DNA of 64,000 bases, taken from positions 2,026-66,025 of the forward strand of contig CAWHPR010000004.1 in assembly GCA_963831295.1 (NCBI GenBank), in the 5' to 3' direction. Each line of letters starts with the position of its first letter. Within the stretch, counting starts at the first letter, position 1. Source of the stretch: an uncultured Thermoleophilia bacterium. Its GTDB lineage: Bacteria; Actinomycetota; Thermoleophilia; UBA2241. This document shows, one piece after another, positions 38,359 through 62,930 of this stretch. A program made the position numbers and the translations under genes. The notes under the pieces are model-generated. The model did no database searches and was not told the DNA's origin. It saw only the letters and a program-made list of their open reading frames with translations.

Positions 38359-38541
38359 GCGCTCTCCCTTCATCGCTCGCGGCGTTCGGGCGAGCGTGGG
38401 GCTCCACTCCACCGCCAACTGTAGCCGAAGCGAGCGCCCGGCGGACCGTGCACGGTGTCCGTGGGGGCGCTTCCCGGCGACGCCCCGACCGTCCGAAGGC
38501 TAATGTTCTGCCATCGTCTGCCGAAGGTCAGTGGTATCGGC

Positions 38542-40731
38542 ATGCAATGGAGCAGAGACAGAGTCGTTCGCAGGGTCGCCCGTGCGGCGACCGTCCTGGT
38601 TCTCGGGACGGTCGCCTTCCTCGCGGTCGCCTGGGCCGCGCCACGCACCAGCGAGGCCGTCGGCACGTGGATCAAGTCACCGCCGGCGGTCACGACGCGC
38701 ACCGTGGCCATCGAGCCGCGCCTTCAGGTCGGTCAGGCCGGTCCGGAGGGCGCCTCGCCGGCCGAGCGCCTGCGCAGCGCGCGCGCGGCCGGGCCGGTCA
38801 CCTTGGACGTCGGCAAGGGCTTCACCATGCTCGGCCTGATGTGCGACGTGCCCGCGACCGGGGCCGAGGTCGAGGTGCAGCTTCGCACCAGCCTCGACGG
38901 CCGCGAGTGGAGCGCCTGGTACGCCGTTCCTCTCGAGATCGCGGGCGACGGCGACGAGGCGCCGCGCGCCTTCACCGACGCCATGTGGACCGGCGAGGGC
39001 CGCTTCGTGCAGGTCTGCGCCGCGGCGGTGGGCGACGACGCTCCCCTCACCCTCGCGGGGGTCGAGCTCATGGCGCTCGACACCGAGGGCGGGTCCGGCG
39101 TCGTCGCGGCGGCCGCCACCACCCTGCGCCAGGTCGTCGCTACGATCTCCGGCGTCAGTCTCGCCGCGCCGGCCGCGGCGGCGGTCGAGACCCCACTCTG
39201 GGTCACGCGCGCCGGGTGGGGCGCCGACGAGTCGTTGCGCACGGGCGAGCCCGCATACGCCACGGTCAAGATGGCCTTCGTCCATCACACCGCCGGAAGC
39301 AACACCTACACCGCAGCGCAGGCGCCGTCCATCGTGCGCGGCATCTACGTCTACCACACCCTCGGTCTCGGCTGGAGCGACATCGGCTACAACTTCCTCA
39401 TCGACCGCTACGGCACGACCTACGTGGGCCGCTACGGCGGGCCGCGGCAGGGCGTCATCGGCGCTCAGGTCTACGGTTTCAACACGGGCAGCACGGGCGT
39501 CTCGGTCATGGGCACCTACACGAGCGAGGCTCCCCCGGCCGCGGCCATGGACGCCCTCGGTCACCTGCTCGCCTGGAAGCTCGAGGTACACGGTCTCGAC
39601 CCGCTGGCGAGCGCGAGAATGACCTGTGGGGCCACGGAGAAATACACGGAGGGCCAGACGGTGACCCTGCCGGTCGTCTCGGGCCATCGCGACGCCAACT
39701 ACACGGCATGTCCGGGTGACGCGCTCTACGCCAAGCTCGGCGCGGTGCGCAGCGCCGCCGCGGCGCAGATCAAGCTCGCCGCCGTCGTCCCCGAGCCGTA
39801 TGTCGTGACCTTGTCGCTCTCCGCGAGCGAGGTCGCGGTCGACACCAAGGTCACCTACAAGGGGACGGTCAAGACCGCGAGCGGCGCCGCGGCATCGGGC
39901 ACGGTGACCGTCCAGAAGCGCCTCGCCCCCGACGGCGACTGGGCGAACTGGCGCTCGGCGACGCTCTCCTCGACCGGCGCCTATTCGGTCGCCGTGACGA
40001 TGACCAGCGCGCCGCGGGACTGGCAGTTCCGCGCCCGCATGCCCGGCGACGGGGCGGCGAACCTCACCGGCACGAGCCCGATCCGCGACCTGCGGGTGCT
40101 CGTCCCCGCGCCGTATGTCGTGACCTTGTCGCTCTCGGCGACCGAGGTCGCGGTCGACACCAAGGTCACCTACGAGGGGACGGTCAAGACCGCAAGCGGC
40201 GCCGCGGCGTCGGGCACGGTGACCGTCCAGAAGCGCCTCGCCCCCGACGGCGACTGGGCGAACTGGCGCTCGGCGACGCTCTCCTCGACCGGCGCCTATT
40301 CGGTCGCGGTGACCATGACCAGCGCGCCGCGGGACTGGCAGTTCCGCGCCCGCATGCCCGGCGACGGCGCCATCAACCTCACCGGCAAGAGTCCGATCCG
40401 TGAGCTCTGGGTCGTGGTCCCCGAGCCGTATGTCGTCACCTTGTCGCTCTCGGCGAGCGAGGTCGCGGCCGGGACGACGGTCACCTACAAAGGGACGGTC
40501 AAGACCGCGAGCGGCGCTCCGGCATCGGGCACCGTGACCGTCAAGAAGCGCCTCGCCCCCGACGGCGACTGGATCAACTGGCGCTCGGCGACGCTCTCCT
40601 CGACCGGCGCCTACTCGGTCGCCGTGACCATGACCACCGCGTCACGCAGTTGGCAGTTCCGCACACGTATGGTTGGCGACGGGGTCAACCTGACCGCCTT
40701 CAGCCCGATCAGAGGCCTCATCGTCCGCTGA
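38542..40731 (+). CDS. Secreted N-acetylmuramoyl-L-alanine amidase (Amidase_2/PGRP domain) with three C-terminal about-105-aa repeats
   Basis: Signal peptide MQWSRDRVVRRVARAATVLVLGTVAFLAVAWA. FVHHTAGSNTY, GWSDIGYNFLIDRYGTTYVGR, GHRDANYTACPG. Three Ig-like repeats. Confidence 0.85.
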   Translation: MQWSRDRVVRRVARAATVLVLGTVAFLAVAWAAPRTSEAVGTWIKSPPAVTTRTVAIEPRLQVGQAGPEGASPAERLRSARAAGPVTLDVGKGFTMLGLMCDVPATGAEVEVQLRTSLDGREWSAWYAVPLEIAGDGDEAPRAFTDAMWTGEGRFVQVCAAAVGDDAPLTLAGVELMALDTEGGSGVVAAAATTLRQVVATISGVSLAAPAAAAVETPLWVTRAGWGADESLRTGEPAYATVKMAFVHHTAGSNTYTAAQAPSIVRGIYVYHTLGLGWSDIGYNFLIDRYGTTYVGRYGGPRQGVIGAQVYGFNTGSTGVSVMGTYTSEAPPAAAMDALGHLLAWKLEVHGLDPLASARMTCGATEKYTEGQTVTLPVVSGHRDANYTACPGDALYAKLGAVRSAAAAQIKLAAVVPEPYVVTLSLSASEVAVDTKVTYKGTVKTASGAAASGTVTVQKRLAPDGDWANWRSATLSSTGAYSVAVTMTSAPRDWQFRARMPGDGAANLTGTSPIRDLRVLVPAPYVVTLSLSATEVAVDTKVTYEGTVKTASGAAASGTVTVQKRLAPDGDWANWRSATLSSTGAYSVAVTMTSAPRDWQFRARMPGDGAINLTGKSPIRELWVVVPEPYVVTLSLSASEVAAGTTVTYKGTVKTASGAPASGTVTVKKRLAPDGDWINWRSATLSSTGAYSVAVTMTTASRSWQFRTRMVGDGVNLTAFSPIRGLIVR
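39787..40731 (+). repeat. Three 315-bp in-frame tandem repeats, about 90-95% identical at the DNA level
   Basis: Units start at 39787, 40102 and 40417, each with gtcccc(g/c)(a/c)gccgtatgtcgt. The third unit ends at the stop codon. Confidence 0.9.
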
Positions 40732-48355: not shown

Positions 48356-48997
48356 GTGCGCAACGTCGATCGAAGGGACGTACCGACGGTCACCGTCCCG
48401 CGGCTCGCCCTCTACCTCCGCAAGCTGCGCGAGTTGCGTGCGCGCGGCGTCGAGCGCGTCTCCTCGAAGGACCTCGCCGAGATGATCGACCTCAACGCCG
48501 CGCAGATCCGCAAGGACTTCTCCTACTTCGGCGAGTTCGGTACGCGCGGCGTCGGCTACGAGGCCGAGAGCCTCGTCGAGGTCATCACACGTTCACTCGG
48601 GCTGCACCGGACCTGGAACGTGGTCATCGTCGGCGCCGGCCCCCTCGGCACGGCGCTCGCGCGCTACCGCGGTTTCGGCGAGCAGGGGTTCAGGCTGACC
48701 GCGATGTTCGACAGCTCCGCGACGGTCATAGGGGCGAACTACGGCGAGGGCAGGGTGCGCAGCGTGGTCGAGCTCGAGGAGTACTGCGCGGCGGAGCGCG
48801 TCGACATCGCCGTGGTGAGCGTTCCGGCGAGCGAGGCGCAGGCCACGATCGAGCGACTCGTGGCGGCCGGGGTACGTGCGATCCTCAACTTCGCACCGGT
48901 CCGGGTCCACACGCCCGACGAGGTGCTCGTTCGCCAGGTCGACCTCTCGAGCGAGCTCATGGCGCTGTCCTTCCACCTCGATCGGGAGTCGGACTAG
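48356..48997 (+). CDS. rex: Redox-sensing transcriptional repressor Rex
   Basis: RLALYLRKL...SSKDLAEMIDLNAAQIRKDFSYFGEFGTRGVGY and the Rossmann fold VVIVGAGPLGTAL. Confidence 0.9.
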   Translation: MRNVDRRDVPTVTVPRLALYLRKLRELRARGVERVSSKDLAEMIDLNAAQIRKDFSYFGEFGTRGVGYEAESLVEVITRSLGLHRTWNVVIVGAGPLGTALARYRGFGEQGFRLTAMFDSSATVIGANYGEGRVRSVVELEEYCAAERVDIAVVSVPASEAQATIERLVAAGVRAILNFAPVRVHTPDEVLVRQVDLSSELMALSFHLDRESD

Positions 48998-49094: not shown

Positions 49095-49263
49095 GCATGA
49101 ATCTGATGCAGTACAACTACATGTATTGTTGTTGACACTGCATCCCCCCGATGATAGATATCTGTTGTTCCTTCTGCCGTCCAATGTGGGGGGGGACGAG
49201 AGGCCGACCAAGGGCCTCTCGCTGCAAGCTCGGGGGACAGGTGGCGCCGTCACCTGACCGCAC
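49095..49263 (+). promoter_or_regulatory. Copy 1 of a 169-nt module: AT-rich dyad, TTGACA-N17-TAGATA promoter, three-hairpin leader
   Basis: Gapless alignment to 57839-58007 gives 151/169 identical, with the first 52 nt identical. ttgaca at 49131-49136, tagata at 49154-49159. Hairpins at 49169-49194, 49197-49219 and 49237-49255. Confidence 0.6.
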
Positions 49264-49303
49264 AGTTGACTACTCAGTTGACCGCCGACCGATCGGAGAC
49301 GCC

Positions 49304-50914
49304 ATGGTGTGGGAAAGCAACAGCTACACGCGCAGGCAGGTGCTCAAGGCGGGAGCCGCCGGCGCGGGTCTGCTGGCCCTGGGTCCGCTGGCGGCGGCGT
49401 GCGGCTCCGAGTCCGAGACCTCGACGTCCGCCGCCGGGTCCGGCCCCAAGACCGGCGGCTCGCTCATCATCGGTCGCCACGACCAGCCGACGGTCCAGGC
49501 AGTCGGGCTGGACCCGCACAACTGCGCGGTCAGCAGCGGCAACGTGTACACGCTCGACAAGATGTACGAGCCGCTGTACGTGACCGACGCGGCCGGCAAG
49601 CTGCAGCCGCTCATGGTCCAGGAGCACAGCGTGAGCAGCGACGGTCTCGTCTACACGCTCATCCTCAAGGAGGGCATCCTGTTCTCCGACGGCGCGGCGG
49701 TGACGGCCGACGACGTGGCTTGGTCGCTCAACCGTGCCCGGCTCAGCGAGACGGGGTCGATGAGCTTCCTGAACTTCGCCATCGCCGACGTGAAGGCGGC
49801 CGACGCGGGTACGGTCGAGATCACGCTCTCGCAGCCATGGGCGCCGCTGCTCTCCGACCTCTCCATCTACTCCGATGCCATCCTGCCCAAGGACCTGCGC
49901 GGCATGTCCGACAAGGAGTTCTTCGCGAACCCGATCGGGACCGGCCCGTTCGTGCTCAAGAGCTGGGAGCAGGAAGGCGCCCTGATCACCCTGGCGCGCA
50001 ACGACAACTACTGGCAGAGCGGCAAGCCCTACGTCGACGAAGTCGTCTTCAAGCTCATCTCCGACGACAACCAGCGGATGCTGCAGCTGCAGAGCGGCGA
50101 CATCCAGATCGCCGACGCAGTGCCGCCGGCCCAGGTCGAGTCGTTGAAGGCCGACGGCAACCTGAGCATCGGCGTCTTCCCCGCGTGGTCGACAGACCTC
50201 TTCCTCTTCAACCATCTGGTCGACCACTACGCGGACCGCAACGTGAGGCGGGCGATCGCCCAGACCATCGACACCGCGAAGATCGTCGAGTCGACGACGT
50301 TCGGCATCTCAGAGGCCGGCGGCTCGTTCTTCCCGCCCAGCCTCGAGTACTACGACCCCGCGACGCCGGTGCTCAAGTACGACCTTGAGGCGGCGAAGGC
50401 CGATCTGGCCGCGTCCGGTTTCCCGGACGGTTTCAAGAGCGAGATCCTGATCCCCAGCGGCGACAAGGTGTGGAACCTGGCCGCGCAGATCATCCAGGCC
50501 GGCGCGGCGGAGCTGGGCATCGACTACACGATCAAGCAGCTGGACCAGGCTGCCTACCAGAACGCCTTCCGCAGCTTCGAGTTCGAGACCTTCATCAACA
50601 ACGCGATCAACGACATCACCGACCCCGACGAGATGGCCTCGTTCCAGTGCGACAACGAGTACGGCGGCTCCAACTGCTTCTGGAGCAACTACGACAACCA
50701 GGATCTGGCCGAGGTCGTGCGTGCGGCGGCCGCCGAGATGGACACGGCGAAGCGCGCCGAGATGTACGCGGAGATCCAGGCGACGGTCGCCCAGGACGCG
50801 CCGTACGTGGCCCTGAGCTACCCGCCCTCGGTCTTTGGCTCGACCACCACGGTGAACGCCTTTGGCGTGAACCCCGCGGGCGCTTATCCGCTGGAGGGTG
50901 TCTGGTTGGCGTGA
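49304..50914 (+). CDS. ABC transporter substrate-binding protein, family 5 (peptide/opine/nickel type), Tat signal plus lipobox
   Basis: ATG at 49304. SYTRRQVLKAGAAGAGLLALGPLAAAC. Family-5 SBP body. Confidence 0.85.
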   Translation: MVWESNSYTRRQVLKAGAAGAGLLALGPLAAACGSESETSTSAAGSGPKTGGSLIIGRHDQPTVQAVGLDPHNCAVSSGNVYTLDKMYEPLYVTDAAGKLQPLMVQEHSVSSDGLVYTLILKEGILFSDGAAVTADDVAWSLNRARLSETGSMSFLNFAIADVKAADAGTVEITLSQPWAPLLSDLSIYSDAILPKDLRGMSDKEFFANPIGTGPFVLKSWEQEGALITLARNDNYWQSGKPYVDEVVFKLISDDNQRMLQLQSGDIQIADAVPPAQVESLKADGNLSIGVFPAWSTDLFLFNHLVDHYADRNVRRAIAQTIDTAKIVESTTFGISEAGGSFFPPSLEYYDPATPVLKYDLEAAKADLAASGFPDGFKSEILIPSGDKVWNLAAQIIQAGAAELGIDYTIKQLDQAAYQNAFRSFEFETFINNAINDITDPDEMASFQCDNEYGGSNCFWSNYDNQDLAEVVRAAAAEMDTAKRAEMYAEIQATVAQDAPYVALSYPPSVFGSTTTVNAFGVNPAGAYPLEGVWLA

Positions 50915-50957
50915 CGCCCGTTCGCTCCAACTACGGGATCGACTGAGGAGGCGGCGT

Positions 50958-51887
50958 ATGTACGTCCTGCGCCGCCTCCTTCAGGCCGTCCCTGTCGTGA
51001 TCGGCATCGTCGTCGTCGTGTTCTTCATGCTGCGGCTCATCCCCGGGGACCCGGCGGCGACGTTGCTGGGGACGCACGCCACCCCGGAGGCCATCCAGCT
51101 GCTGCGCGACCGCTGGGGGCTCGACGAGCCTGTCTGGGTGCAGTTCTGGATGTTCCTCAAGCAGCTCGCCCACGGCGACACGGGCCAGTCGCTGTTCTAC
51201 GAGGTCCCGACGCGCGAGCTGATCGCCAATCGCGTCCCGGTCACCGTCGCCCTCGTCGCGCTGGCGGCGACGTTCGCGGTGCTCATCTCCGTGCCACTTG
51301 CGACGTACGCGGCCGTGCACAAGGACCGCCTGCCCGACCACGTCATCCGCATGGTGCCGCTGGTCGGGCTCGGCATGCCGTCCTTCTGGGTCGGCCTGGT
51401 GCTGATCCTGATCTTCGCCGTACGGCTCGGCTGGTTCCCGGTCGGGGGGTGGGGTGAGACGATTCCTGAGCACATCTACGGGCTCATCCTGCCGGCGCTC
51501 ACCTCGGCGCTGGGCATCGTGCCCCTGTTGGTGCGCAGCCTGCGTGCCGGCATGCTCGAGGTGCTGGAGGCCGACTACGTGGCGGTCGCGAGGTCGAAGG
51601 GCATCCGCGAGACCCGCGTGCTGATCGTCCACGTGGCGCGCAACGCCTTCGTGCCGACCCTCACGCTGCTGGGCATCAACATCGCGTTCCTCATGGGGGC
51701 GACCGTGGTGGTGGAGCGCGTCTTCCAGCTGAACGGGCTCGGGAGCCTCATGCTCACCTCGATCAGCAACCGGGACTTCCCGGTCGTCCAGGGCGTCACC
51801 ATCATCTTCGCCCTTGCCGTCGTCGCGATCACTCTCGTCACCGATCTCGTGGCCGCGGCGACCGATCCCCGGATCAGGCTGTCATGA
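50958..51887 (+). CDS. ABC peptide-type transporter permease (DppB/OppB-like)
   Basis: MYVLRRLLQAVPVVIGIVVVVFFMLRLIPGDP. EAA-loop region present. Confidence 0.85.
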   Translation: MYVLRRLLQAVPVVIGIVVVVFFMLRLIPGDPAATLLGTHATPEAIQLLRDRWGLDEPVWVQFWMFLKQLAHGDTGQSLFYEVPTRELIANRVPVTVALVALAATFAVLISVPLATYAAVHKDRLPDHVIRMVPLVGLGMPSFWVGLVLILIFAVRLGWFPVGGWGETIPEHIYGLILPALTSALGIVPLLVRSLRAGMLEVLEADYVAVARSKGIRETRVLIVHVARNAFVPTLTLLGINIAFLMGATVVVERVFQLNGLGSLMLTSISNRDFPVVQGVTIIFALAVVAITLVTDLVAAATDPRIRLS

Positions 51888-52777
51888 GCACTCCCGGAAT
51901 CGTCACCGCAGGCGGCAGTGAGCAGGCCGTAGCCCTGGAGGGCTTCGTCGTCCGCTCCCATCCGACGCTGCGCAAGGCACTGCGCAACCGCTCGCTGCTG
52001 CTGGGCGCGGGCGTCATCGGCAGTCTGGTGCTCGTCGCGCTCCTGGCTCCGTGGATCGCGCGCTACGACCCCCTTGAGCAAGACCTCATGGCGACGCTGC
52101 AGCTCCCGTCCTGGGGGCACTGGCTGGGCACCGACGAGCTCGGCAGGGACGTGTGGTCGAGGCTCGTGTGGGCGGCCCGGTTCGACCTCGCCACCGGGTT
52201 CTTCGTCGTCCTCTTCCCGTTCGCCTTCGGCACGCTCATCGGCACGCTTGCCGGCTACTACGGCGGCTGGATCGACACCGTGCTCAGTCGCATCGTTGAC
52301 GTGGTCATGGCCTTCCCGTACTACATTCTGATCATCACGCTGGTGTTCGTGGTGGGCGAGGGCATCCGCGGCATCTTCATCGCCTTCGCGCTGGCCGACT
52401 GGGTGACGTATGCGCGCACGGTGCGCAGCACCACACTGGTGGCGCGTCGCATGGAGTGGGTCGCCGCTGCGCGCAGCGGCGGCCTCTCGGACCGACGCGT
52501 CATCGTGCGTCACATCTTGCCCAACACGATCACCCAGGCCGTCGTCTACGCGATGTCCGACGTGGTCTACGTGATCCTCGCGGTCGTCACTCTCGGCTAC
52601 CTGGGTCTGGGCATCCAGGCGCCGCAACCTGACTGGGGGTCCATGATCTTCGACGGACAGCTCTTCATGACCACGCGCTGGTGGCTGTCGACCATCCCCG
52701 GTCTCTGTGTGGTCGTCACCGGGATCGGACTGTCCCTGTTCGGCGACGGCCTGGCCGACGTGTTGCGCCCCGAATGA
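51884..52777 (+). CDS. ABC peptide-type transporter permease (DppC/OppC-like)
   Basis: ATGA overlap with the upstream gene. HWLGTDELGRDVWSRLVW. Confidence 0.85.
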   Translation: MSTPGIVTAGGSEQAVALEGFVVRSHPTLRKALRNRSLLLGAGVIGSLVLVALLAPWIARYDPLEQDLMATLQLPSWGHWLGTDELGRDVWSRLVWAARFDLATGFFVVLFPFAFGTLIGTLAGYYGGWIDTVLSRIVDVVMAFPYYILIITLVFVVGEGIRGIFIAFALADWVTYARTVRSTTLVARRMEWVAAARSGGLSDRRVIVRHILPNTITQAVVYAMSDVVYVILAVVTLGYLGLGIQAPQPDWGSMIFDGQLFMTTRWWLSTIPGLCVVVTGIGLSLFGDGLADVLRPE

Positions 52778-53838
52778 CCACCCCGGCTCTCCATGTCGAT
52801 CGGCTCGCGGTCGAGATCTCAAGGGGCGGCGAGAGCTTCCGTGCCGTCGACGACGTCTCGTTCAGCGTCGCACCCGCCCGTTCTGTCGGGGTCGTGGGTG
52901 AGTCCGGATGCGGCAAAAGCATCAGCCTGCGCGCGATCATGGGGCTTCTCCCCGACGCGGCGCGCGCCGTGTCCGGCAGCGTCAGCGTCCACGGCACCGA
53001 GTTGCCCCTGGAGGGCAAGAAGGCGGCACGGGCGCGGCGTGGGCACCTCGCGATGATCTTCCAGGATCCCGGGACCGCGTTGAACCCGGTGCAGAAGGTC
53101 GGTGACCAGATCGCCGAGACGCCGCGCCTGGTGCTGGGCGAGTCGAAGGCGCGGGCTCGTGCCCGCGCCCTGGAACTGCTGAACCACGTGGGCATCGCCG
53201 ACCCCGAGCACCGCTACGACAGCTATCCGTTCGAGCTCTCGGGGGGGACGCGGCAGCGGGTGATGATCGCCATCGCGCTGGCCTCGCAGCCCAAAGTGCT
53301 CCTCTGCGACGAACCCACCACGGCGCTCGACGTGACGATCCAGGCGCAGATCCTGCGCCTGCTGGTCGATCTGCGCGAGGAGATGGGGCTCGCGGTCGTG
53401 TTCGTGACGCACGAGCTGGCGCTCGTCGGTCAGCTGTGCGAGGACGTCTGCGTCATGTACGCGAGCCGGCTCGTAGAGACCGGCCCCACGTCGGCCGTGC
53501 TGGAGCGCCCGCTTCACCCGTACACGCTCGGACTGCTGCGCTCGGCGGTCGACCTGGATGAGGATCTGGAGGCGCCCAAGCCGATTCCCGGCAGCCTGCC
53601 GGACCCGGCGCGGCGTCCGGCGGGGTGCCCGTTCCACCCCAGGTGCTTCCTTGCGACCCCCGAGTGCGCGACCAGTCCGGTCAGCCTGGCGGACCTGGGC
53701 GCGGGTCGCGCCAGCGCCTGCCTGCACGTGGACCGGCTCGTCGCCGAAGACGGCCAAGCGCTGCTCGAGCAGGCCACGCGGGCCGTCGCCGACCGTCGAG
53801 CAGACCGGGCCGACGCCACGGACGGTGGCGATGACTGA
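52774..53838 (+). CDS. ABC transporter ATP-binding protein (DppD/OppD-like)
   Basis: ATGA overlap. [32 protein letters not shown]-terminal oligopeptide-type extension HPYT. Confidence 0.9.
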
Positions 53839-54826
53839 GCCTCTGCTTGCGGTGCGCGATCTCAAGGCCACCTTCGACGTGCCCGGCTATGGGGTGGTCC
53901 GCGCCGTGGACGGTGTGTCGCTGGACGTGGCGGCCGGCGAGATCGTCGGGCTCGTCGGCGAGTCTGGATGCGGCAAGTCGACCATCGGCCGCTGCATCAC
54001 GGGCCAGCTGGAGCCCGACAGCGGCAAGATGCTGCTCGACGGCGCCGCGCTGGACAGCCGCCGGTCCTCGGAGCGGCGGAGAGCGGTGCAGATGGTCTTC
54101 CAGGACCCGGCGTCGTCGCTCAACCCACGGATGTCCGTCCGCGCGGTGCTGGCGGAGCTGCTGCGCGTGCACAGACTGGTGCCCAAGGACCAGGTCGAAC
54201 GCCGCTGCCGCGAGCTCATGGGGTTGGTCGGCATGCCGGACGAGGCACTCGACGGGCATCCGCATCAGTTCTCGGGGGGGCAGCGGCAACGCATCGCCAT
54301 CGCCCGGGCGCTGGCCGTGGAGCCCCGGCTGCTGATCGCCGACGAACCGGTCTCCGCGCTGGACGTGTCCGTGCAGGCGACGATCCTGCAGCTGTTCGAC
54401 GACCTGCGGCATCGACTCGGGCTGGCCGTGCTGCTCATCTCGCACAACCTGGCGGTGGTCAGGTACCTCTCGGACAAGGTGGCGGTCATGTACCTGGGCA
54501 GCATCGCCGAGATAGCCGACCGCGACACCCTGTTCAGCGACCCCCGCGCCCCCTACACCCGCGTGCTGCTCGAGGCCGCGCCTCGGCTGAGGCAGGTAGG
54601 CAAGGCACCGGAGCCGGGGCTCAAAGGGGATCCGCCGAGCGCCGTGAACGTCCCCGCGGGCTGTCGGTTCCACACGCGCTGTCCGCGGGCGGAGGAGCGC
54701 TGTGCGCTGGAGGAGCCGGCCCTGTCGCCCGTCGCCGACGGGCCGGTCCCGGCCGGCGCCCAGCCGCATCTCGCAGCCTGCCACTTCCGGGCGGAGCGCG
54801 GCGGAGCGCCGGGGAGTGCCACGTGA
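53831..54826 (+). CDS. ABC transporter ATP-binding protein (DppF/OppF-like)
   Basis: [37 protein letters not shown]. Confidence 0.9.
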   Translation: MTEPLLAVRDLKATFDVPGYGVVRAVDGVSLDVAAGEIVGLVGESGCGKSTIGRCITGQLEPDSGKMLLDGAALDSRRSSERRRAVQMVFQDPASSLNPRMSVRAVLAELLRVHRLVPKDQVERRCRELMGLVGMPDEALDGHPHQFSGGQRQRIAIARALAVEPRLLIADEPVSALDVSVQATILQLFDDLRHRLGLAVLLISHNLAVVRYLSDKVAVMYLGSIAEIADRDTLFSDPRAPYTRVLLEAAPRLRQVGKAPEPGLKGDPPSAVNVPAGCRFHTRCPRAEERCALEEPALSPVADGPVPAGAQPHLAACHFRAERGGAPGSAT

Positions 54827-56376
54827 CCGCGGCCGGGCGACGGCCGGATCGCGCTCTCGGCTCTCGCTCATACTCGGCGGACGGCTTGAAGGCTGCCCTC
54901 GAGGACTTCGTCGGCCGCCGCCCCGAGTACGCCGGGACGGCCGCGCTCGATGGGCTGCGCGCCGCGGAGTACGCGCGCCTCGACCGCGCGGGTCACACCT
55001 ACCTGGACTACACGGGCGGCGGCCAGTACGCGGAGTGCCAGCTGGCCCGCCACCACGCGCTGTTGAGCGAACGCGTGCTCGGCAACCCCCATTCGCACAA
55101 CCCGAGCTCAGCCGCGTCCACCAGGCTGGTGCAGGACGCTCGCGACGCCGTGAGGGATCTGTTCAACGCCGCGGACGACGAGTACGAGGTGATCTTCACG
55201 GCCAACGCCAGCGGTGCCCTCAAGCTCGTCGGCGAGGCGTATCCGTTCCAGCCAGGCGGCGTCTTCCTGCTGAGCTACGACAATCACAACTCCGTCAACG
55301 GCATCCGAGAATTCGCGCATGCGAAGGGCGCCGTGACCTCGTACGTCCCCGTCCGCCGGTCGGACCTGCGGCTCGATGAACGAGCCTTGAGACGCGCGCT
55401 GCGCGCGGTCACCCCAGGGACCGATCACCTCTTCGCGTACCCGGCTCAGTCGAACTTCAGCGGCGTGCAGCATCCCTTGGAGTGGGTGGCGGAGGCGCAT
55501 GAGCACGGCTGGGACGTCATCATCGACTGCGCCGCCTTCGCGCCCACCAATCGGCTGGACCTGGGCGTCGTCAAGCCGGACTTCGTCTGCGTGTCGTTCT
55601 ACAAGCTCTTCGGCTACCCCACCGGCGTCGGCGCGCTCGTCGCGCGTCGCGACAGCCTGGCCAAGCTGCGGCGGCCCTGGTTCTCCGGCGGCACGATCAC
55701 CGTCGCCTCCGTGCAGGACGAGGGATGGTACCGGTTGGCCCCGCCGCCGGCCTGTTTCGAAGACGGGACGGTCGACTACCTGGGCCTGCCGGCGGTCATC
55801 ATCGGTGTCGAGTACCTTCAGTCGATCGGCGTGGAGACGATCCACACGCGAGTCATGGCGCTGGCCGGCTGGCTTCTCGAGGAGCTGAGCATGCTGCGCC
55901 ACAGCGATGGTGCTCCGATGGTGCGCATCTTCGGTCCACCTGACACTGCGCAGCGCGGCGCCACGATCGCCCTCTACCTGCTGGACCCCGACGGCCGTCC
56001 GTACAACGTCTACGACGTCGAGACGGCCGCCGGGCGGGAGCTCATCTCGATCCGCACGGGCTGCTTCTGCAATCCGGGTGACGGCGAGGTCGCGCACGAC
56101 ATCACCCACGACGACATGCAGCGCTGCTTCGATGAACCGGCCGCCGTGGTCAGCCTGATGGAGTGCCAGCAGATCATCGAGGACGCCACCGGCAAGGTGC
56201 CGAACACCATCCGCGTCTCGCTGGGTGTGGCCTCGGACTTCGCCGACGTGTACCGCTTCATGACGTTCGTTGCCGGGTATCGCGACCGTGCCGCCAACGT
56301 GCAGACGGGGGCTCAGTCGGATCGCGGCCGCCCCGGATGTGCCGACTGCCCTACGTGCTCAGCCGCGGATGCGTGA
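54823..56376 (+). CDS. Class-V PLP enzyme closely resembling the NifS-like N-terminal domain of molybdenum cofactor sulfurase (MOCOS/ABA3); no MOSC domain
   Basis: GTGA overlap with the upstream ATPase. GNPHS, IFTANASGALKLVGEAYPF, LFAYPAQSNFSGVQHPLEW, SFYKLFGYPTGVGALV (PLP Lys), FEDGTVDYL, IRTGCFCNPG (persulfide Cys). Confidence 0.75.
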   Translation: MTAAGRRPDRALGSRSYSADGLKAALEDFVGRRPEYAGTAALDGLRAAEYARLDRAGHTYLDYTGGGQYAECQLARHHALLSERVLGNPHSHNPSSAASTRLVQDARDAVRDLFNAADDEYEVIFTANASGALKLVGEAYPFQPGGVFLLSYDNHNSVNGIREFAHAKGAVTSYVPVRRSDLRLDERALRRALRAVTPGTDHLFAYPAQSNFSGVQHPLEWVAEAHEHGWDVIIDCAAFAPTNRLDLGVVKPDFVCVSFYKLFGYPTGVGALVARRDSLAKLRRPWFSGGTITVASVQDEGWYRLAPPPACFEDGTVDYLGLPAVIIGVEYLQSIGVETIHTRVMALAGWLLEELSMLRHSDGAPMVRIFGPPDTAQRGATIALYLLDPDGRPYNVYDVETAAGRELISIRTGCFCNPGDGEVAHDITHDDMQRCFDEPAAVVSLMECQQIIEDATGKVPNTIRVSLGVASDFADVYRFMTFVAGYRDRAANVQTGAQSDRGRPGCADCPTCSAADA

Positions 56377-57619
56377 GCACCGGCACGCCGCGCTTGAAGA
56401 CGCCGGTGACCACGTCTGATCGCCTGAAGCAGCCCAGATCGCCGGGGTCTTCGTCGATCAGCAGCGCATCGAAGTCGTAGCCCGGCGCGATCCGCCCCAG
56501 CCGATGGCCGACGCCGCAGAGCGAGGCGCCGTTGGCAGTGCCGGCCAGCAGCGCCTCTTCGACGGTCAGGCCGGCCCGATGCAGGTGGTGCAGTTCGACG
56601 AGGTTGCGGCCGTGCTGCTCGCGGTGGCCGAAGTCGCTGCCCAGAGCGACGAGCACGCCGGCCTCGCGCGCGAGCCTCACCGCCTCGCCCAGTCGCGGCG
56701 TGACCTCGCCCATGCGCCGCGACACGATGTCGCTGAGCTCGCCGGCCGCGGCGAGCTCAGCCAGCTCGTGGTAGATCGCCAGGGTGGGGACGAGGGCGCA
56801 CCCGTGTCGGGCCATGAGCCGGGCGTCGGCTTCGGTCAGGAAGATCGCGTGCTCGATGGAGCGCGCGCCGGCCTCCACGGCGACGCGTATCGACGGGCCG
56901 CCCAGAGCGTGCACCATGACGCCCTTGTCGCGCCGTGAGGCCTCGAAGACGGCTGTCGTGATCTCCTCAGCGGTCAGCTCAGACTCGAACGCCCCGTCGC
57001 CCGTCGCCATGACGCCACCGGTGGCCATGAGCTTGATCCAGTCCGCTCCCGCGCGCAGAAGGCGACGGACGGTCTTGCGCATCTCGTCCGGTCCGTCGGC
57101 GCGCAGCGGCGGTCGCCCCGGATAGTCGGGTACGGCGTAGTCGGTCGCGCACTCGAGGGCCGGGCCGGCGAGGTAGCCATCGCCGTGACCTCCGGTCGGG
57201 CCGAGTGCCTGCACCGAGACCTGCAGGTGCGGTCCGGGGACATAGGAGCGCGCGACGGCCTCGCGCACGCCGGCATCGATGCCCCCCGCATCGCGCACGA
57301 AGGTGACCCCGGCCTGAAGAGTGCGTCTCAGCGCTTGGGCGGTCTCCAGGGTGCGCAGCGACAGCGGCGTCCGCAGCAGTTCGAGGGCATCGAAGGAGGG
57401 AAGGCCCACGTGCGCGTGGCAGTCCGCGACGCCGGGCAGGAGCCACAGCCCGTCCGCGTCGATGTCGCGGTAGCCGGGCTGTGCGGGAAGAGCGCGGCCG
57501 AGCGCTACCACCACCCCGTCACGAGCGGCCACATCGAGCGGGTCGCTGAAGCTGCCTGCTTGATCGAGCACGCGCACGCCTCGCATGACGAGGGCGACGG
57601 GATCCTCGCTCCGGCTCAT
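56351..57619 (-). CDS. Amidohydrolase-family metallohydrolase
   Basis: Start is MSRSEDPVALVMRGVRVLD. Metal-binding motif LLPGVADCHAHVG. Later HALG..., and EHAIFL. Confidence 0.75.
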   Translation of the reverse strand: MSRSEDPVALVMRGVRVLDQAGSFSDPLDVAARDGVVVALGRALPAQPGYRDIDADGLWLLPGVADCHAHVGLPSFDALELLRTPLSLRTLETAQALRRTLQAGVTFVRDAGGIDAGVREAVARSYVPGPHLQVSVQALGPTGGHGDGYLAGPALECATDYAVPDYPGRPPLRADGPDEMRKTVRRLLRAGADWIKLMATGGVMATGDGAFESELTAEEITTAVFEASRRDKGVMVHALGGPSIRVAVEAGARSIEHAIFLTEADARLMARHGCALVPTLAIYHELAELAAAGELSDIVSRRMGEVTPRLGEAVRLAREAGVLVALGSDFGHREQHGRNLVELHHLHRAGLTVEEALLAGTANGASLCGVGHRLGRIAPGYDFDALLIDEDPGDLGCFRRSDVVTGVFKRGVPVLTHPRLST

Positions 57620-57838
57620 GTCTGCCCCGGTCGAGCCCGGCCACGACCGCACCCGGCGGTTCGCGTACGCGCACGCGGCGTGGGGCGGGGGTCCATGGCG
57701 GTGGACTCTCCTGCGGCAGGGATGAAGTAGACGTTCATGCAGGGGCACACTCTACTCCCCGGCTCCCCCGACGGGCAAAGGCGGCGGGGTAGGCGGACCA
57801 CGTCCACGCGCGGCACGCCACCTCCGCGAATTCACTCA

Positions 57839-58007
57839 CATGAATCTGATGCAGTACAACTACATGTATTGTTGTTGACACTGCATCCCCGCGATGGTAG
57901 ATATCTGTTGTTCCCTCTGCCATCCGATGTGGAGAGGGTGGAGAGGCCGATCAGGGGCCTCTCGCGGCAAGCCTGGGGGACAGGTGGTGACGTCACCCGA
58001 TCGCACA
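57839..58007 (+). promoter_or_regulatory. Copy 2 of the 169-nt dyad/promoter/leader module
   Basis: ttgaca at 57875-57880, tagata at 57898-57903. Hairpins at 57913-57938, 57941-57963 and 57981-57999. 82 nt of non-conserved sequence follow before the ATG at 58090. Confidence 0.6.
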
Positions 58008-58089
58008 AGGAGGTGAGGGCGGAGGATCTCGACGATCTTTGTATACGCTCCGAGGCCCACTGAGGGCATCCAACGCTGGGAGGCATTTC

Positions 58090-59184
58090 ATGCGAGAAGG
58101 CAAGATCGGGCGGGGGTTCGCCCTGGCGCTCGTCCTGGGTCTGGCGGCCATGCTGGCCGCCGCCGTCGGTTGTGGTGGTCGAGAGGAGACGGTAACACCG
58201 ACAGGGGACGCGACCGATGTGGTCAAGGTGACCAAGATCGCGGTCATCACGCCCGAGAAGGGGAACGACTTCGGCTGGAACCAGCAGGGCGTCGAAGGCG
58301 CGCAGGCGGCTGCGGCGTCGGTGGGCGCTGAGTGCATCGTCCAGGACGGTGCAGGCTACGGCGACATCACACCGATCCTGAACCAGCTGGCCGGCGAGGA
58401 GCCTCAGCTCATCTTCGCGTGGGCGAGCGGCTACAACACCGTCGGTCCGCAGATGGCGAATCAGCTGCAGATCCCGATCACGGCCAGCGACCCTGGTGAC
58501 GAGTCCGCCAACGTGCCTGGTCTCGTCCAGGCCGTCGAGACGAACGGCCAGAACGGCGGGTACCTCGCGGGTTTCCTCGCCGGCAAGATGAGCCAGACCG
58601 GCACCGTCGCCATCGTGGTGTCCGCTGAAGACCTGAACTGGTCCAAGGCCGCCGGCGGCTTCGTCGCCGGCGCACGCGCCGCGGCCCCTGACGTCAAAGT
58701 CCTCTACGTGCAGATCGGTCAGGCCGCCTACGCCGACGCGGCGGGTGGCAAGCGCGTCACCGCGAACGCCATCTCCGGCGGCGCGGACGTCGTCTTCGGT
58801 ATGGGCGACGGTTCGTCGTTCGGCATGATGCAGGCAGTCGAGACCGCGACGCCGCCGAGCGGCGCCGACAAGGTGTGGTTCATCGACGTGATCGGCGACA
58901 AGAGCCCGACGGACGACAAGGGCATCCTGCTCTCGTCGGTCCTTTGGGATTGGACTCCGTTCATGACGGAGGCCATCGCGCAGGTCGAGAACGGCACGTT
59001 CGGGACAGCCAGCTTCTATCTGGACCTCGACAACGGCATGGGCCTGTTGCAGACCGCTCACATCCCCGACGACGTCTGGGCCGAGATCGAGACGGCCAAG
59101 GCGGGCGTCATGGATGGCAGCATCGAGGTGCCGACGCTTTCGAGCAGCAAGGAAGTCAAGGCTCTCATTTCTTCTGGTGAGTGA
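58090..59184 (+). CDS. BMP-family (PnrA/Med-like, nucleoside-type) ABC substrate-binding lipoprotein
   Basis: ATG at 58090 follows gggagg. Lipobox LAAAVGC. KIAVITPEKGNDFGWNQQG.... Confidence 0.8.
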   Translation: MREGKIGRGFALALVLGLAAMLAAAVGCGGREETVTPTGDATDVVKVTKIAVITPEKGNDFGWNQQGVEGAQAAAASVGAECIVQDGAGYGDITPILNQLAGEEPQLIFAWASGYNTVGPQMANQLQIPITASDPGDESANVPGLVQAVETNGQNGGYLAGFLAGKMSQTGTVAIVVSAEDLNWSKAAGGFVAGARAAAPDVKVLYVQIGQAAYADAAGGKRVTANAISGGADVVFGMGDGSSFGMMQAVETATPPSGADKVWFIDVIGDKSPTDDKGILLSSVLWDWTPFMTEAIAQVENGTFGTASFYLDLDNGMGLLQTAHIPDDVWAEIETAKAGVMDGSIEVPTLSSSKEVKALISSGE

Positions 59185-60860
59185 CGATGGCTCCTGTCTC
59201 TCACGAGAGTGACGGGGCGGGCGGGCGCGGTCAGATGACCGCGCCCGCCCGCCCCGGCGACGCTGCGCCACCCGACACCGATGTCGCGCAGACGATCGCC
59301 ATCGAGCTCTGCGGCATCACGAAGGTGTTCCCCGGCGTGCGCGCCAACGACTGCGTCAACCTCCTGGTGCGGCAGGGCGAAGTGCACTGCCTACTCGGTG
59401 AGAACGGCGCCGGCAAGTCGACGTTGATGAACGTGCTGGCCGGCATCTACCTGCCGGAAGAAGGCAACATCCGCGTGTGCGGCCGGGAGGTCTGCATCAG
59501 CTGTCCGCGCGACTCGATCGATCTGGGCATCGGCATGGTGCACCAGCACAGCAGCCTGATCTCCACCTTCACCGTGCTCGAGAACCTCATGCTCGGCCAA
59601 GGCGAGGGTGTGCGACTCAGCGTCAAGAAGGCCCAGGAAGGACTCGCGAGGCTCTCGGCCACGCTCGGCGTGGATGTCGAGCCCGACATCGTGGTAGAGC
59701 AGCTCTCGCTCGGCCAGCAGCAGCAGGTGGAGATCATCAAGGCGCTCTGGCAGGGCTCGAAGGTCCTCATCCTCGACGAGCCGACCTCGATGCTGACTCC
59801 CAAGGGCATCGAGGACCTCGAGCGCGTCCTCGTGCGCCTCAAGCAGGAGGGGCTCGCCGTCATCTTCATCACCCACAAGCTGCCCGAGGCCTTCAGGATC
59901 GGCGATTGCGTCTCGGTCCTGCGTCAAGGTCGACTCGAGGGCACCATCGACCGTGAGGCGATGAGTGCCGCTTCGCAGGAGCAGATGCAGCGCATGGTCG
60001 TGGAACTGATGTTCCCCGGCGAGGCCGAGAGTCTGGCCAACGTCGCCGAGCTGCGCGATCTCGCGGAGCTGGGCGGTACGGGCCGGAAGGCGACGGCCGG
60101 AGAGCCGCTGCTCGAGCTTCAGGACATCAGCGTCACAGGCAAGCGCGGCGAGATCGGCATCGAGGGGGGCTTGACGCTCACCGTGCATGCCGGCGAGGTG
60201 GTCGGCATCGCCGGCGTGGACGGCAACGGTCAGCGACCGTTGGCCGAATCCATCGCCGGCCAGCGTCCGCTCGCCGCCGGCGACATCAAGCTCGGCGGCA
60301 CATCGATGCGGAGGCTGAGCATCGCCGCGCGCCAGCATCACGGTCTGCGCTACGTCACCGACGATCGTGTCAACGAGGGGATCGTCGGGTCGCTCAGCGT
60401 CGCCCTCAACATGGTCACCAAGCGTATCGGCATGCCGCCGTTCTGGGTGCGTGGCCGTACGCGAACGCCTGCGATCGACGACCACGCCACCGGACTGGTG
60501 AGCGAGTACAACATCATGACGCCGTCCATCCACACCCACGCGGGGTCGCTCTCGGGCGGCAACATCCAGAAGGTCGTGCTCGCGCGCGAACTGTCCTTCG
60601 ATCCCAAGATCGTGGTGTTCAACAAACCGACCTACGGGCTGGATGTCAAGACCGCCACCGCGGTCCGTACGCGCATCCGAGATCTGGCGGACACGGGCAC
60701 CGCCGGCGCCCTGGTCATCTCCACCGACCTCGAAGAGCTCCTTGTGCTCAGCGACCGCGTCGCGGTCCTTTCGCGCGGACGCCTCATGGGGATCGTCCAG
60801 AACAAGCCCGGGGCGGAGCAGGAGATCGGTGCACTGATGATCGGAGGGGAGCCAGATTGA
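59181..60860 (+). CDS. ABC transporter ATP-binding protein with duplicated ABC domains
   Basis: GENGAGKST, LSLGQQQQVEI, LILDEPTS. The second domain has LSGGNIQKVVLAR and FNKPTYGLD. Confidence 0.9.
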   Translation: MTMAPVSHESDGAGGRGQMTAPARPGDAAPPDTDVAQTIAIELCGITKVFPGVRANDCVNLLVRQGEVHCLLGENGAGKSTLMNVLAGIYLPEEGNIRVCGREVCISCPRDSIDLGIGMVHQHSSLISTFTVLENLMLGQGEGVRLSVKKAQEGLARLSATLGVDVEPDIVVEQLSLGQQQQVEIIKALWQGSKVLILDEPTSMLTPKGIEDLERVLVRLKQEGLAVIFITHKLPEAFRIGDCVSVLRQGRLEGTIDREAMSAASQEQMQRMVVELMFPGEAESLANVAELRDLAELGGTGRKATAGEPLLELQDISVTGKRGEIGIEGGLTLTVHAGEVVGIAGVDGNGQRPLAESIAGQRPLAAGDIKLGGTSMRRLSIAARQHHGLRYVTDDRVNEGIVGSLSVALNMVTKRIGMPPFWVRGRTRTPAIDDHATGLVSEYNIMTPSIHTHAGSLSGGNIQKVVLARELSFDPKIVVFNKPTYGLDVKTATAVRTRIRDLADTGTAGALVISTDLEELLVLSDRVAVLSRGRLMGIVQNKPGAEQEIGALMIGGEPD

Positions 60861-62002
60861 CTGATATCGCAAACGGAGCGGCCCCTGTCGCCGTTGCGCC
60901 CCGGCAAGCGTCGGTGTGGCGGCGCGGGGGAAAGGCGTTCTGGCGGGCAGCCGCGCCCGTGATCTACGCCCTCATCGCCGGCGGCGTGCTGCTGCTCGTC
61001 ATGGGCAAGAACCCGGCCGCCTTCTACTGGACCACCGTCGAGAGCGGACTGCTCACGTGGGGCGGCCTCATGCAGACGCTCATCCGCCTCGCCCCCCTGC
61101 TGCTCATGTCGGCGGGGTTCATCGTGGCCTTCCAGGCGGGGCTGTGGAACATCGGCGGCGACGGCCAGTTCCTGCTCGCCGCCGCCATGGTCGGCGGACT
61201 CGGCGCCTCGATGGTGGGTGCCATGCCCTTCTGGCTGGCGCTCATCCTGCTCTGCGTCATCGGCTTCGTCGTCGGCGGCGCGTGGACGGTCGTGCCCTCG
61301 TTCCTCAAGGCCTACTACGGCATGAACGAGATCATCACCACGCTGATGATGGCCTATCTCGGCATCAACATCGCCAACATGCTCATCAAGGGTCCGTTCC
61401 TCACCGACACCGCGTACGTGCCGCAGACCAACGTCATACCTTTCGAGTATCTGCTGCCGTACATCCCCGGTTCGCGCATTCACGTCGGCATCATCATCGC
61501 CCTGGTCGTGCTCGGCATCGTGCACTACACGCAGACCCAGACCGGGTACGGTCTCCGGCTGCGGATCCTGGGAGCCAATCCCAAGGCCGCGGTGCACGCG
61601 GGCATCAGCGTGAAGAGGGACATCATGACGTCGTTCGCCCTCAGCGGCGGCCTCATCGGTCTCGCCGCCGCCGTCGAAGTGCTCGGCGTGTGGGGCTACG
61701 TCCGCGCCGACTGGAACCCCGCGTTCGGTATGACGCTGTTCGCCATCGTGTTCCTGGCCGGGCTGAACGTCATGGTGGTCATCCCCTTCGTGTTCTTCTT
61801 CGCGGTCATCCAGATAGGCGGGCACGAGGCCGCCCGACAGGCAGGGCTGCCCAACGACTTCCTGCTGCTGCTCATCGGCCTGATCCTGTTCTTCATGGTG
61901 CTCACGGAGTGGGCCTCGGCGCGAGGCTGGCGCATCAAGGGTCGCAAGAAGAGCGTGGCGGCAGCCGAGGTCGACCCGAAAGTGGCGGTGAGCAATGAAT
62001 AG
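60857..62002 (+). CDS. ABC transporter permease (BPD_transp_2 type)
   Basis: Overlapping start. About 10 TM helices. Typical partner of BMP-type systems. Confidence 0.8.
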   Translation: MTDIANGAAPVAVAPRQASVWRRGGKAFWRAAAPVIYALIAGGVLLLVMGKNPAAFYWTTVESGLLTWGGLMQTLIRLAPLLLMSAGFIVAFQAGLWNIGGDGQFLLAAAMVGGLGASMVGAMPFWLALILLCVIGFVVGGAWTVVPSFLKAYYGMNEIITTLMMAYLGINIANMLIKGPFLTDTAYVPQTNVIPFEYLLPYIPGSRIHVGIIIALVVLGIVHYTQTQTGYGLRLRILGANPKAAVHAGISVKRDIMTSFALSGGLIGLAAAVEVLGVWGYVRADWNPAFGMTLFAIVFLAGLNVMVVIPFVFFFAVIQIGGHEAARQAGLPNDFLLLLIGLILFFMVLTEWASARGWRIKGRKKSVAAAEVDPKVAVSNE

Positions 62003-62930
62003 CATCCTGACCGCCGACTTCATCGCCGCCGTCATCACCGGCGCCATCCTCGCCAGCATGCCGCTCCTCCTGGCGGCGCTCGGTGAGACCATCTCGGAGC
62101 AGGGGGGCCTGCTCAACATCGGCCTCGAGGGCATGATGCTCCTCGGCGCCTACGCAGGCTTCGTCGTCACCTGGTGGTCGGGCTCGTACTGGGTCGGGTT
62201 CCTTGCGGCCATCGTCGCGGGCATGGCGGTCGCCATGCTCATGGTCATCTTCTGCGTGCGGATGGGGCGCGACCAGATCGTCGTGGGCATCGCCATCCTC
62301 CTCGCCATGGAGGGTCTCACCAGCCTGCTGCACGCGGCACAGTTCGGCGACAGCTACCCGCGTCTCGACGGCGTGCCGGCTGTCGCCATCCCCGGGCTCA
62401 GCAAGATCCCCGTGCTGGGACCGAGCATCTTCAGCCAGCCCCTGATCGTCTACATCGGCATCGCGCTGATCTTCGTGGTGGCTTGGCTCCTGTACCGGGC
62501 CAACATCGGCCTCAACATCCGGGCCGCGGGGTGGAAGCCGGTGGCGCTCGACAACGCCGGCGTGGACGTGCTCAAGATCCGCACGATCGCGGTGTTGTCG
62601 ACCGGCGCTCTGGCCGGCCTCGGCGGCGGGTACATGGCCATCGTCACCGCCGGCATCTTCGTGCCCTTCATGACCGGTGGCCTCGGGTTCATCGCCATCG
62701 TCATCGCCATGCTGGGTCGCGGTCGTCCGGTGTGGGTCCTTATCGGCTCTCTGCTCTTCGGCATCGCGCTGTCGATCGCGACGGCTCTGCAACTGGTCGG
62801 CATCAACATCTCCACCGACGTCGTCCAGATGCTGCCGTTCCTCAGCGTCATGCTCGCTCTCGTGCTGTTCGCGCGGCAGTCGTATCTGCCGTCGGCGCTG
62901 GCCATCCCGTTCGTTCGCGGCCAGCGATGA
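61995..62930 (+). CDS. ABC transporter permease (BPD_transp_2 type)
   Basis: 8-nt overlap with the upstream permease. Multi-TM. Confidence 0.8.
   Translation: MNSILTADFIAAVITGAILASMPLLLAALGETISEQGGLLNIGLEGMMLLGAYAGFVVTWWSGSYWVGFLAAIVAGMAVAMLMVIFCVRMGRDQIVVGIAILLAMEGLTSLLHAAQFGDSYPRLDGVPAVAIPGLSKIPVLGPSIFSQPLIVYIGIALIFVVAWLLYRANIGLNIRAAGWKPVALDNAGVDVLKIRTIAVLSTGALAGLGGGYMAIVTAGIFVPFMTGGLGFIAIVIAMLGRGRPVWVLIGSLLFGIALSIATALQLVGINISTDVVQMLPFLSVMLALVLFARQSYLPSALAIPFVRGQR

Follow-up and report, generated by a model that had tools for sequence, protein, structure and literature searches.

Genes and repeats at the locus

The window considered here, a stretch of 64,000 nucleotides from an uncultured Thermoleophilia bacterium, contains two ABC transporter operons, each preceded by a copy of the same 169-nt module. 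Upstream of the first copy (copy A, 49096-49264, + strand) lie a GNAT gene on the minus strand, a glutamate-1-semialdehyde aminomutase gene, and rex (48356-48997, + strand; 264.9 bits against the NCBIfam Rex model), the last of these serving only as context. Copy A is followed by an 8.57-kb block (49265-57838) in which Pfam and NCBIfam models identify an Opp-type operon and a convergent amidohydrolase gene (56351-57619, - strand). The Opp-type operon specifies a family-5 substrate-binding protein (SBP5, 49304-50914), two permeases (50898-52777), two ATPases (about 52774-54826) and a class-V SufS-like enzyme (54886-56376). The second copy of the module (copy B, 57839-58007, + strand) precedes a BMP-type (BMP/PnrA) ABC operon (58090-64000, + strand; Pfam) with genes for an SBP (58090-59184), a double ATPase (59181-60860), two permeases (60857-62930) and a class-V transaminase that begins at 62976 and continues past the end of the window. 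A preliminary description of this DNA had given both operons the same content (SBP, permeases, ATPases and a class-V PLP enzyme). The Pfam and NCBIfam matches confirm this, although the class-V enzymes differ in subfamily, being SufS/CsdA-like in the Opp operon and pyridoxamine-pyruvate-transaminase-like in the BMP operon.

What does the BMP-type transporter carry? Its SBP scores 385.9 bits against NCBIfam NF047927 ('putative B6 ABC transporter SBP'), below the cut-off of 400, and the transaminase, a partial protein in the window, scores 305.9 bits against the pyridoxamine-pyruvate transaminase model, whose cut-off is 600. Going by these below-threshold leads, the transporter possibly takes up vitamin B6. 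In relatives (related loci are cited below by L numbers) the BMP operon continues with genes for a ferredoxin, an aldehyde:ferredoxin oxidoreductase (AFOR), a ThiS-like protein, a GntR/UTRA regulator and an Fe-alcohol dehydrogenase (L011, 14053-17095; L036, 15061-19092; L037, 15082-19104; L008, 11124-12153). Together with the pyridoxamine-pyruvate-transaminase-like enzyme, these genes suggest that the imported compound may be converted from amine to aldehyde to acid.

The two copies of the module align without gaps at 151 of 169 positions, with an offset of 8743 nt. The preliminary description had the duplication and its identity right but placed copy A one base too low, at 49095-49263. Its further claims that the opening 52 nt are identical and that the block is AT-rich in surroundings of about 70% GC are borne out by the alignment and by the measured GC content (0.48-0.54 in the module, ~0.70 around it). 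Transitions account for 13 of the 18 differences between the copies, and the contrast between the opening part and the rest (0/52 versus 18/117) gives a Fisher p of 0.0019. At both ends of the module identity drops to background at once, and the flanks are unrelated: the local alignment of the upstream flanks was equalled by 74 of 500 shuffles and that of the downstream flanks by 352 of 500. The spacers from module to start codon were also said to be unrelated to each other, as they are; the length of 82 nt given for copy B (58008-58089) stands, but that for copy A is 39 nt (49265-49303) and not 41. No third copy was found in the 64-kb window, either with a 38-mer allowing up to three mismatches or with nhmmer.

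Repeats of other kinds also occur in the window. Three tandem 315-nt repeats (39785-40714; the second and third 95% and 82% identical to the first) lie within a 758-aa ORF (38455-40731) that has an N-acetylmuramoyl-L-alanine amidase domain and weak DUF11-like C-terminal repeats. A 204-nt direct repeat (7921-8124 and 9864-10067; 96% identity, 1943 nt apart) has similar stretches also at 7881/9825 and 11782, and its second copy overlaps the end of the gene for a 773-aa HTH-GAF-HD-GGDEF protein (9873-12194, - strand). Finally, a run of short GC-rich repeats (GGCCGCCGCC...) at 27988-28118 is followed at 28127-28582 by a 207-nt direct repeat of 72% identity; the whole of 27988-28582 is probably a repetitive Gly/Ala/Pro-rich coding region.

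Promoter-like and operator-like elements and their occurrence in relatives

Reading of the copy A sequence reveals promoter-like elements at 49132-49160 (+ strand), namely a -35 hexamer TTGACA (49132-49137), a 17-nt spacer, a TG (49152-49153) and a -10 hexamer TAGATA (49155-49160); in copy B they occupy 57875-57903, with TTGACA at 57875-57880. The TTGACA, spacer and TAGATA are as the preliminary description gave them, but the -10 hexamer is not a consensus one. TAGATA matches TATAAT at three of six positions; of the A at position 2 and the T at position 6 by which such hexamers were judged, it has the first and lacks the second, and a consensus promoter scan of both copies' regions called 0 promoters. 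The TG stands in the extended -10 position and is kept in relatives; a TG-extended -10 can compensate for a poor -10 hexamer. From the position of these elements we infer that transcription would start near 49167 in copy A and 57910 in copy B.

The module also has two nested dyads. The outer one (GATGCAGT / ACTGCATC; 49105-49144, + strand, copy B 57848-57887) has arms at 49105-49112 and 49137-49144 that are perfect over 8 nt and 24 nt apart, and a DNA-fold z of -6.5. The inner one is the operator-like core TACAACTACATGTAT, of form ACA-N6-TGT (49112-49126, + strand, copy B 57855-57869); TACA-N6-TGTA occurs at only two sites in the window, these being copies A and B, against an expectation of 0.02. 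The imperfect dyad previously seen as ATGCAGT...ACTGCAT is therefore real and slightly longer than was stated, but it is confined to this lineage, relatives having no equivalent (fold z from -1.3 to +1.0), and the conserved part is the inner tACAA-N4-cTGTAT. Across relatives tACAA..aCcTGTAT is kept, and most of them have the true palindrome ATACA-N6-TGTAT.

The core can be written TGTATNNTNNTTGAC, and in related contigs it reads tACAA-N4-cTGTAT-N5-TTGACACTG-N11-TGgTAgA. Fifteen promoter instances give the consensus atACAA..aCcTGTATtGT.aTTGACACTG....g...CGaTGgTAgA, in which TTGAC is invariant; TTGACACTG...CGaTGgTAgA is kept in all relatives. Some BMP promoters (L021, L024, L034 and L036) carry, within ACGTCACG...CGTGAGT, a further conserved dyad, TCACG-N7-CGTGA; it lies upstream of the TGTAT motif by about 45-70 nt and is missing from the window's module.

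To which operon does this promoter belong? The core is found before BMP orthologues in 11 distinct related contigs, which include L008, L009, L011, L016, L018, L021, L024, L034, L036 and L037, and the upstream neighbours of these orthologues are of three kinds: Rex, UbiD or a divergent gene. Where the BMP orthologues are 75-87% identical to those of the window (L008, L009, L011) the promoter is clearly homologous. A degenerate pattern derived from these promoters matched 22 metagenome stretches; all seven GC-rich ones lie upstream of BMP orthologues, and the remainder are low-GC chance matches or belong to an unrelated terminator-promoter family. An HMM built solely from relatives' BMP upstream regions matches copy B at 57853-57905 (E=7e-9) and copy A at 49110-49179 (E=2.5e-8), with a further weak match to the 3' leader of copy B (57985-58070, E=0.014). 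In ~231 kb of related DNA the core was found only at these promoters. Opp orthologues that lack the module (SBP identity 90% in L001-L003, 84% in L006, 79% in L004) have other upstream neighbours, and the homology of the window to their upstream regions begins only ~20 nt before the ATG (~49280-49287). Because the core in these contigs always stands before BMP orthologues whereas these Opp orthologues are without it, the BMP operon has in copy B its native promoter and 5' leader, and copy A is derived.

The derived copy is present in a sister strain. Among 185,579 GTDB species-representative genomes, a 21-mer taken from the identical part matches exactly only once, in an uncultured Thermoleophilia MAG (L007) whose Rex and SBP5 are 96% and 98% identical to those of the window. 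The module lies at the same place in this strain, between rex and the Opp SBP gene (L005 641-809, L007); the contig of the sister MAG appears to end ~1.9 kb past copy A, and the comparison covers the copy A site.

These distributions bear on whether the module might be a MITE-like or otherwise dispersed mobile repeat that came to lie before two operons by chance. Like MITEs and REP-like repeats the module is short, AT-rich, sharply bounded and intergenic, and has an internal inverted repeat. Unlike them it has two copies only and no terminal inverted repeats (CATGAATC... versus ...CGCACA), and is the orthologous promoter of one gene family, its core being kept at orthologous positions before BMP genes. 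Copies scattered irrespective of gene context, which the preliminary description had proposed looking for, did not appear: there is no third copy in the window, the single exact genome match is the orthologous site of the sister strain, and the metagenome matches of high GC content all precede BMP genes. This explanation is largely refuted and we hold it to be very improbable.

The AT-rich part might alternatively encode a 12-residue peptide, MNLMQYNYMYCC (ATG 49098 to TGA 49136), acting as a leader peptide or small protein. The frame is open in both copies and in L005, but neither copy has a Shine-Dalgarno sequence upstream of it, and frame and ATGs are missing from the homologous region of all relatives while the -35, -10 and operator are kept, which makes a peptide scarcely credible. 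Nor does a longer frame from ATG 49151 help. This frame, fused to the SBP in copy A and 37 codons long in copy B, was rejected as coding since it is not conserved and since the differences fall at 9 first, 4 second and 5 third codon positions, with no third-position excess.

The transcribed leader

Alignment with the leaders of relatives indicates that the full BMP-operon leader in the window is ~180 nt long (57910-58089, + strand). It contains three predicted hairpins, P1 (57913-57938), P2 (57941-57963) and P3 (57981-57999), followed by the boxes AAGGAGGTGA (58007-58016) and GAGGGCA (58062-58068) and the Shine-Dalgarno sequence GGGAGG (58078-58083), all on the + strand. In relatives the leader is ~300 nt long and begins with two sequence-variable hairpins, after which come the conserved boxes in the order GUCGAGGCCARCUCAGGGGGAGGU, AAGGAGGUGAC, GAGGGCA and Shine-Dalgarno sequence; AAGGAGGUGAC is a perfect complement of the 16S rRNA 3' end. 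The copy B leader is thus ~110 nt shorter than those of relatives, and its boxes are retained. The palindrome GGTGACGTCACC of copy B (57981-57999; compare L009 ~695-755 and other relatives) seems to be what remains of the base of a long stem, CGGUGACG...CGUCACCG, after collapse; the ~110 nt inside this stem, found in relatives, are deleted in the window lineage.

One of the boxes has a further peculiarity. All BMP leaders looked at (window, L008, L009, L011, L016, L018, L021, L024, L034, L036 and L037) have AAGGAGGTGA(C) unchanged; it complements the 16S rRNA 3' end perfectly over 10 nt, stands 75-95 nt upstream of the real start codon and is followed by no conserved ORF. In the RNAalifold structure it belongs to a small hairpin, of which it occupies the loop and 3' arm.

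For seven relatives, RNAalifold predicts long-range helices in which the first box pairs with the ribosome-binding region. The structure has 70 pairs, with 92.4% of cells paired versus 87.7% after shuffling (0/500) and 13 pairs showing compensatory change (2/500), figures that come from seven sequences with the structure taken from the same alignment; slid controls give 39-47%. In copy B, the P2 3' arm and box could form a duplex with the Shine-Dalgarno region, at a predicted -28.4 kcal/mol. The BMP leader might be viewed as an undescribed Thermoleophilia riboswitch-like RNA whose boxes pair with the ribosome-binding region and which senses the transported compound, a suggestion that we put forward tentatively and think unlikely to be correct; the structure has moderate support. 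The compound sensed could conceivably be a vitamin B6 vitamer, judging from the SBP and transaminase similarities. We know of no validated B6 or PLP riboswitch class, and a literature search returned no account of either a B6 transporter of the BMP family or a riboswitch for B6.

Copy A has only the beginning of this leader (49167-49264, + strand), with folds corresponding to P1 (49170-49195), P2 (49198-49220) and P3 (49238-49256). The end of the module falls exactly on base 1 of the AAGGAGGTGA box and interrupts a predicted helix, which leaves copy A without any of the 3' partner strands. The sister strain allows the constraint on this remnant to be gauged. Between window and sister strain the promoter part of copy A differs at 1 of 65 positions and the transcribed part at 14 of 104 (13.5%); third codon positions of the flanking genes differ at 5.6-10.3%. 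It follows that the promoter is constrained and the leader of copy A is not.

Might the shared unit nonetheless be an RNA element, with the ~100 transcribed nt (P1-P3) acting as a riboswitch or attenuator before both operons? In its favor, the three hairpins fold in copy A, copy B and L005 and their pairing is retained, five of six stem substitutions keeping it; the P2 stem is invariant while its loop varies; and the BMP leader family shows the covariation described above. Against it, the 5' boxes of relatives pair with the 3' leader and ribosome-binding region that copy A lacks, and the module end cuts the helix at the AAGGAGGUGA box. The copy A leader diverges between sister strains at or above the third-codon rate, stems of the module's three copies (A, B and L005) hold no significantly smaller share of the variable columns (p=0.13), and by sequence reading the complement of the Opp Shine-Dalgarno sequence is absent from the remnant. 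Single-sequence RNA folds are unremarkable (z of +0.47 and -1.22), and Rfam 15 (4227 families) gave no gathering-score match in the window or in eight related loci, and only noise at E<=10 for both copies and a relative's leader. We regard a common RNA element as improbable.

The preliminary description had taken promoter, operator and the first ~105 transcribed nt together as the conserved unit. Comparison with relatives upholds promoter and operator; the transcribed nucleotides are the opening stretch of a longer BMP leader, truncated in copy A and there in near-neutral drift. The related idea of an RNA element common to both operons finds no support, copy A having a cut 5' piece of the BMP leader that diverges at an approximately neutral rate. 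Since copy A lacks the partner strands and its stems are not significantly protected, any riboregulation would concern the BMP operon only, and the transcribed part of copy A is probably a BMP-leader remnant with no such role.

Origin of the duplication and regulation of the two operons

The preliminary description was right about the homology of the two copies but missed their origin: they are same-orientation direct repeats, and what they exactly bracket is an 8.6-kb block, made up of the Opp operon and the amidohydrolase gene, that separates Rex from the BMP operon. In L011, GNAT, hemL-type aminotransferase and Rex genes are followed directly by the BMP operon with its homologous promoter. 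The upstream hemL-Rex synteny is thus common to L011 and the window, and of these two the window has the block between Rex and BMP; direct repeats flank a block that is missing from the same site in relatives. Elsewhere, in L001 and L004, the Opp-amidohydrolase block occurs without repeats. A second context is seen in L037 and L008, where UbiD is followed by BMP, and in L036, which has UbiD, an Opp-type operon, an amidohydrolase gene (- strand), a PALP gene (- strand) and then BMP.

Similarities of the genes on the two sides of copy B are discordant. The Opp-block genes of the window are 82-91% identical to those of L001 (amidohydrolase 70%) and 68-79% identical to those of L036 (amidohydrolase 56%), whereas the BMP SBP, ATPase and permeases are 71-79% identical to those of L012, which is on the same contig as L001, and 77-84% identical to those of L036. 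From this discordance we infer partly separate histories for the block and the BMP operon.

Several routes could lead to the repeat-block-repeat arrangement: the block may have been inserted with duplication of a long stretch, a circle containing the block and one repeat may have integrated, or a copy may have replaced an older Opp promoter. Relatives without the block may also have lost it by recombination between the repeats. The lack of homology between the flanks makes classical gene conversion unlikely; a longer duplication, or conversion with homologous flanks, was likewise considered and rejected, both pairs of flanks being no more alike than shuffles. At the left junction (49263-49282) there are short direct micro-repeats, a pair of CAGTTGAC in the window and a pair of CACCTGACCGC in the sister strain (L005 ~795-825); these could be traces of microhomology-mediated joining. 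The 219 nt between the amidohydrolase start and copy B (57620-57838) have no detectable homology to their counterparts in L001, L004 and L011, and presumably hold both the amidohydrolase promoter and the right-hand junction of the block.

Is copy A a working promoter or just a scar? Copy A could be a neutral relic of recombination, with the Opp operon transcribed by read-through from rex or from some other start. The repeats bracket the block exactly and have unrelated flanks, no consensus terminator was found after rex, and the -10 hexamer is weak, all of which suit a scar. What speaks against a scar is the pattern of conservation: a single change in the 65-nt promoter part between sister strains when adjacent sequence differs by 13-20%, the concentration of identity between copies A and B in the opening 52 nt (p=0.0019), and an Opp operon in L036 that retains the operator and promoter elements despite an unrelated spacer. 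On balance a neutral scar appears unlikely. We consider it probable instead that the BMP promoter/operator has been duplicated, that copy A serves the Opp operon, and that both operons are under the same promoter and the same DNA-binding regulator.

In the proposed course of events, the module would have begun as the native BMP promoter, made up of the operator-like motif tACAA-N4-cTGTAT, TTGACA, a weak TG-extended -10 and the first ~100 nt of the leader. The copies and the 8.6-kb block would have become lodged between Rex and the BMP operon, leaving the second promoter copy before the Opp-type operon. As only ~20 nt of Opp's own upstream sequence are left, copy A would have to supply the Opp promoter. 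Both operons would thereby come under one regulator, for which a GntR/UTRA protein is the candidate. The module would then be an ordinary operator-controlled SigA-type promoter, duplicated in such a way that an adjacent gene block joins an existing regulon. This is a regulatory duplication of a fairly ordinary kind.

The preliminary description had also proposed a two-operon regulon under a shared regulator, and comparative evidence supports this proposal. In L036, a more distant relative, the operator, -35, TG and -10 stand before both the Opp-type operon (SBP 68% identical) and the BMP operon, the two sites reading caaACAActtccTGTATCGTCATTGACC...CGATGATAGACA and catACAAgaaccTGTATTGTCATTGACA...CGGTGGTAGATA, and the sequence between these elements is unrelated in the two promoters, which indicates an old divergence with the functional elements retained. 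More generally, all BMP promoters and the L036 Opp promoter retain the motif while neighboring sequence drifts, and the core is specific to these operons. The L036 promoters thus support co-regulation, at the level of sequence comparison, with the proviso that they represent one independent genome and that their dual motif could itself descend from an older duplication. In the L001/L012 genome the motif is before neither operon. Taken together, the comparisons suggest that one regulator probably switches both operons.

Which protein might this be? L011, L036 and L037 each have a GntR/UTRA gene as the last of the BMP operon, and in the motif-less L012 there is no GntR gene after the AFOR gene of the BMP operon; the GntR/UTRA protein of relatives' BMP operons is a candidate regulator. 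A tblastn search with the L011 GntR protein found no homologue in the 64-kb window, and the end of the BMP operon lies beyond base 64000. Rex, the product of the neighboring gene, was also considered as regulator and rejected, as the module has no TTGTGAA-N4-TTCACAA-like operator; allowing up to three mismatches, the only match to this operator in the window is at 19213, the number expected by chance. The adjacency of rex fits its linkage to hem genes.

If this interpretation is correct, the locus would be a clear and datable case of bacterial regulon growth, in which a transporter block beside an operon gains the promoter/operator of that operon, and in which the signature of selection is visible as a frozen promoter next to a co-duplicated leader that drifts. 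It would also provide a compact operator-promoter motif and a candidate GntR/UTRA regulator for an uncultured Thermoleophilia lineage without studied regulation, and a testable guess about physiology, since a peptide-type uptake operon would be tied to a putative vitamin B6 uptake and conversion operon. As a by-product, the analysis points to a long, conserved and apparently structured BMP leader that is absent from RNA family databases.

How does the locus compare with known systems? Its same-orientation copies bracketing a block, the flanks that relatives keep without the block, and the discordant similarity of the Opp and BMP genes are features of Campbell-type integration and excision or of duplicative insertion (promoter capture). 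Unlike in such systems, however, neither the block nor its immediate surroundings contain an integrase, a transposase or an att-like feature, and the 169-nt repeat is far longer than the target duplications made by transposases. The BMP leader is like Shine-Dalgarno-sequestering leaders and translational riboswitches before ABC operons in having boxes predicted to pair with the ribosome-binding region, with some compensatory changes. It differs from translational riboswitches in falling outside all 4227 Rfam families, and the duplicated module carries only the 5' part of the leader, so that copy A cannot form the helices.

The closest likeness is to sigma-70/SigA promoters with an upstream operator, of the kind found in GntR/HutC or MocR-type operons. 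The module shares with these a perfect -35, a 17-nt spacer and a TG-extended -10, and differs in a -10 hexamer without the canonical final T. As in GntR/HutC or MocR-type operons, the -35 has a short palindrome immediately upstream of it (ATACA-N6-TGTAT in most relatives), and a GntR/UTRA gene closes the operon in the three relatives named above. The HutC site is TGTA-N2-TACA, and the half-sites of the module (TACA...TGTA) have the opposite orientation. In L008 and L018 a further direct copy of the half-site makes a pair of direct boxes plus a single inverted one, the arrangement reported most often for MocR-type sites (PMC5320631).
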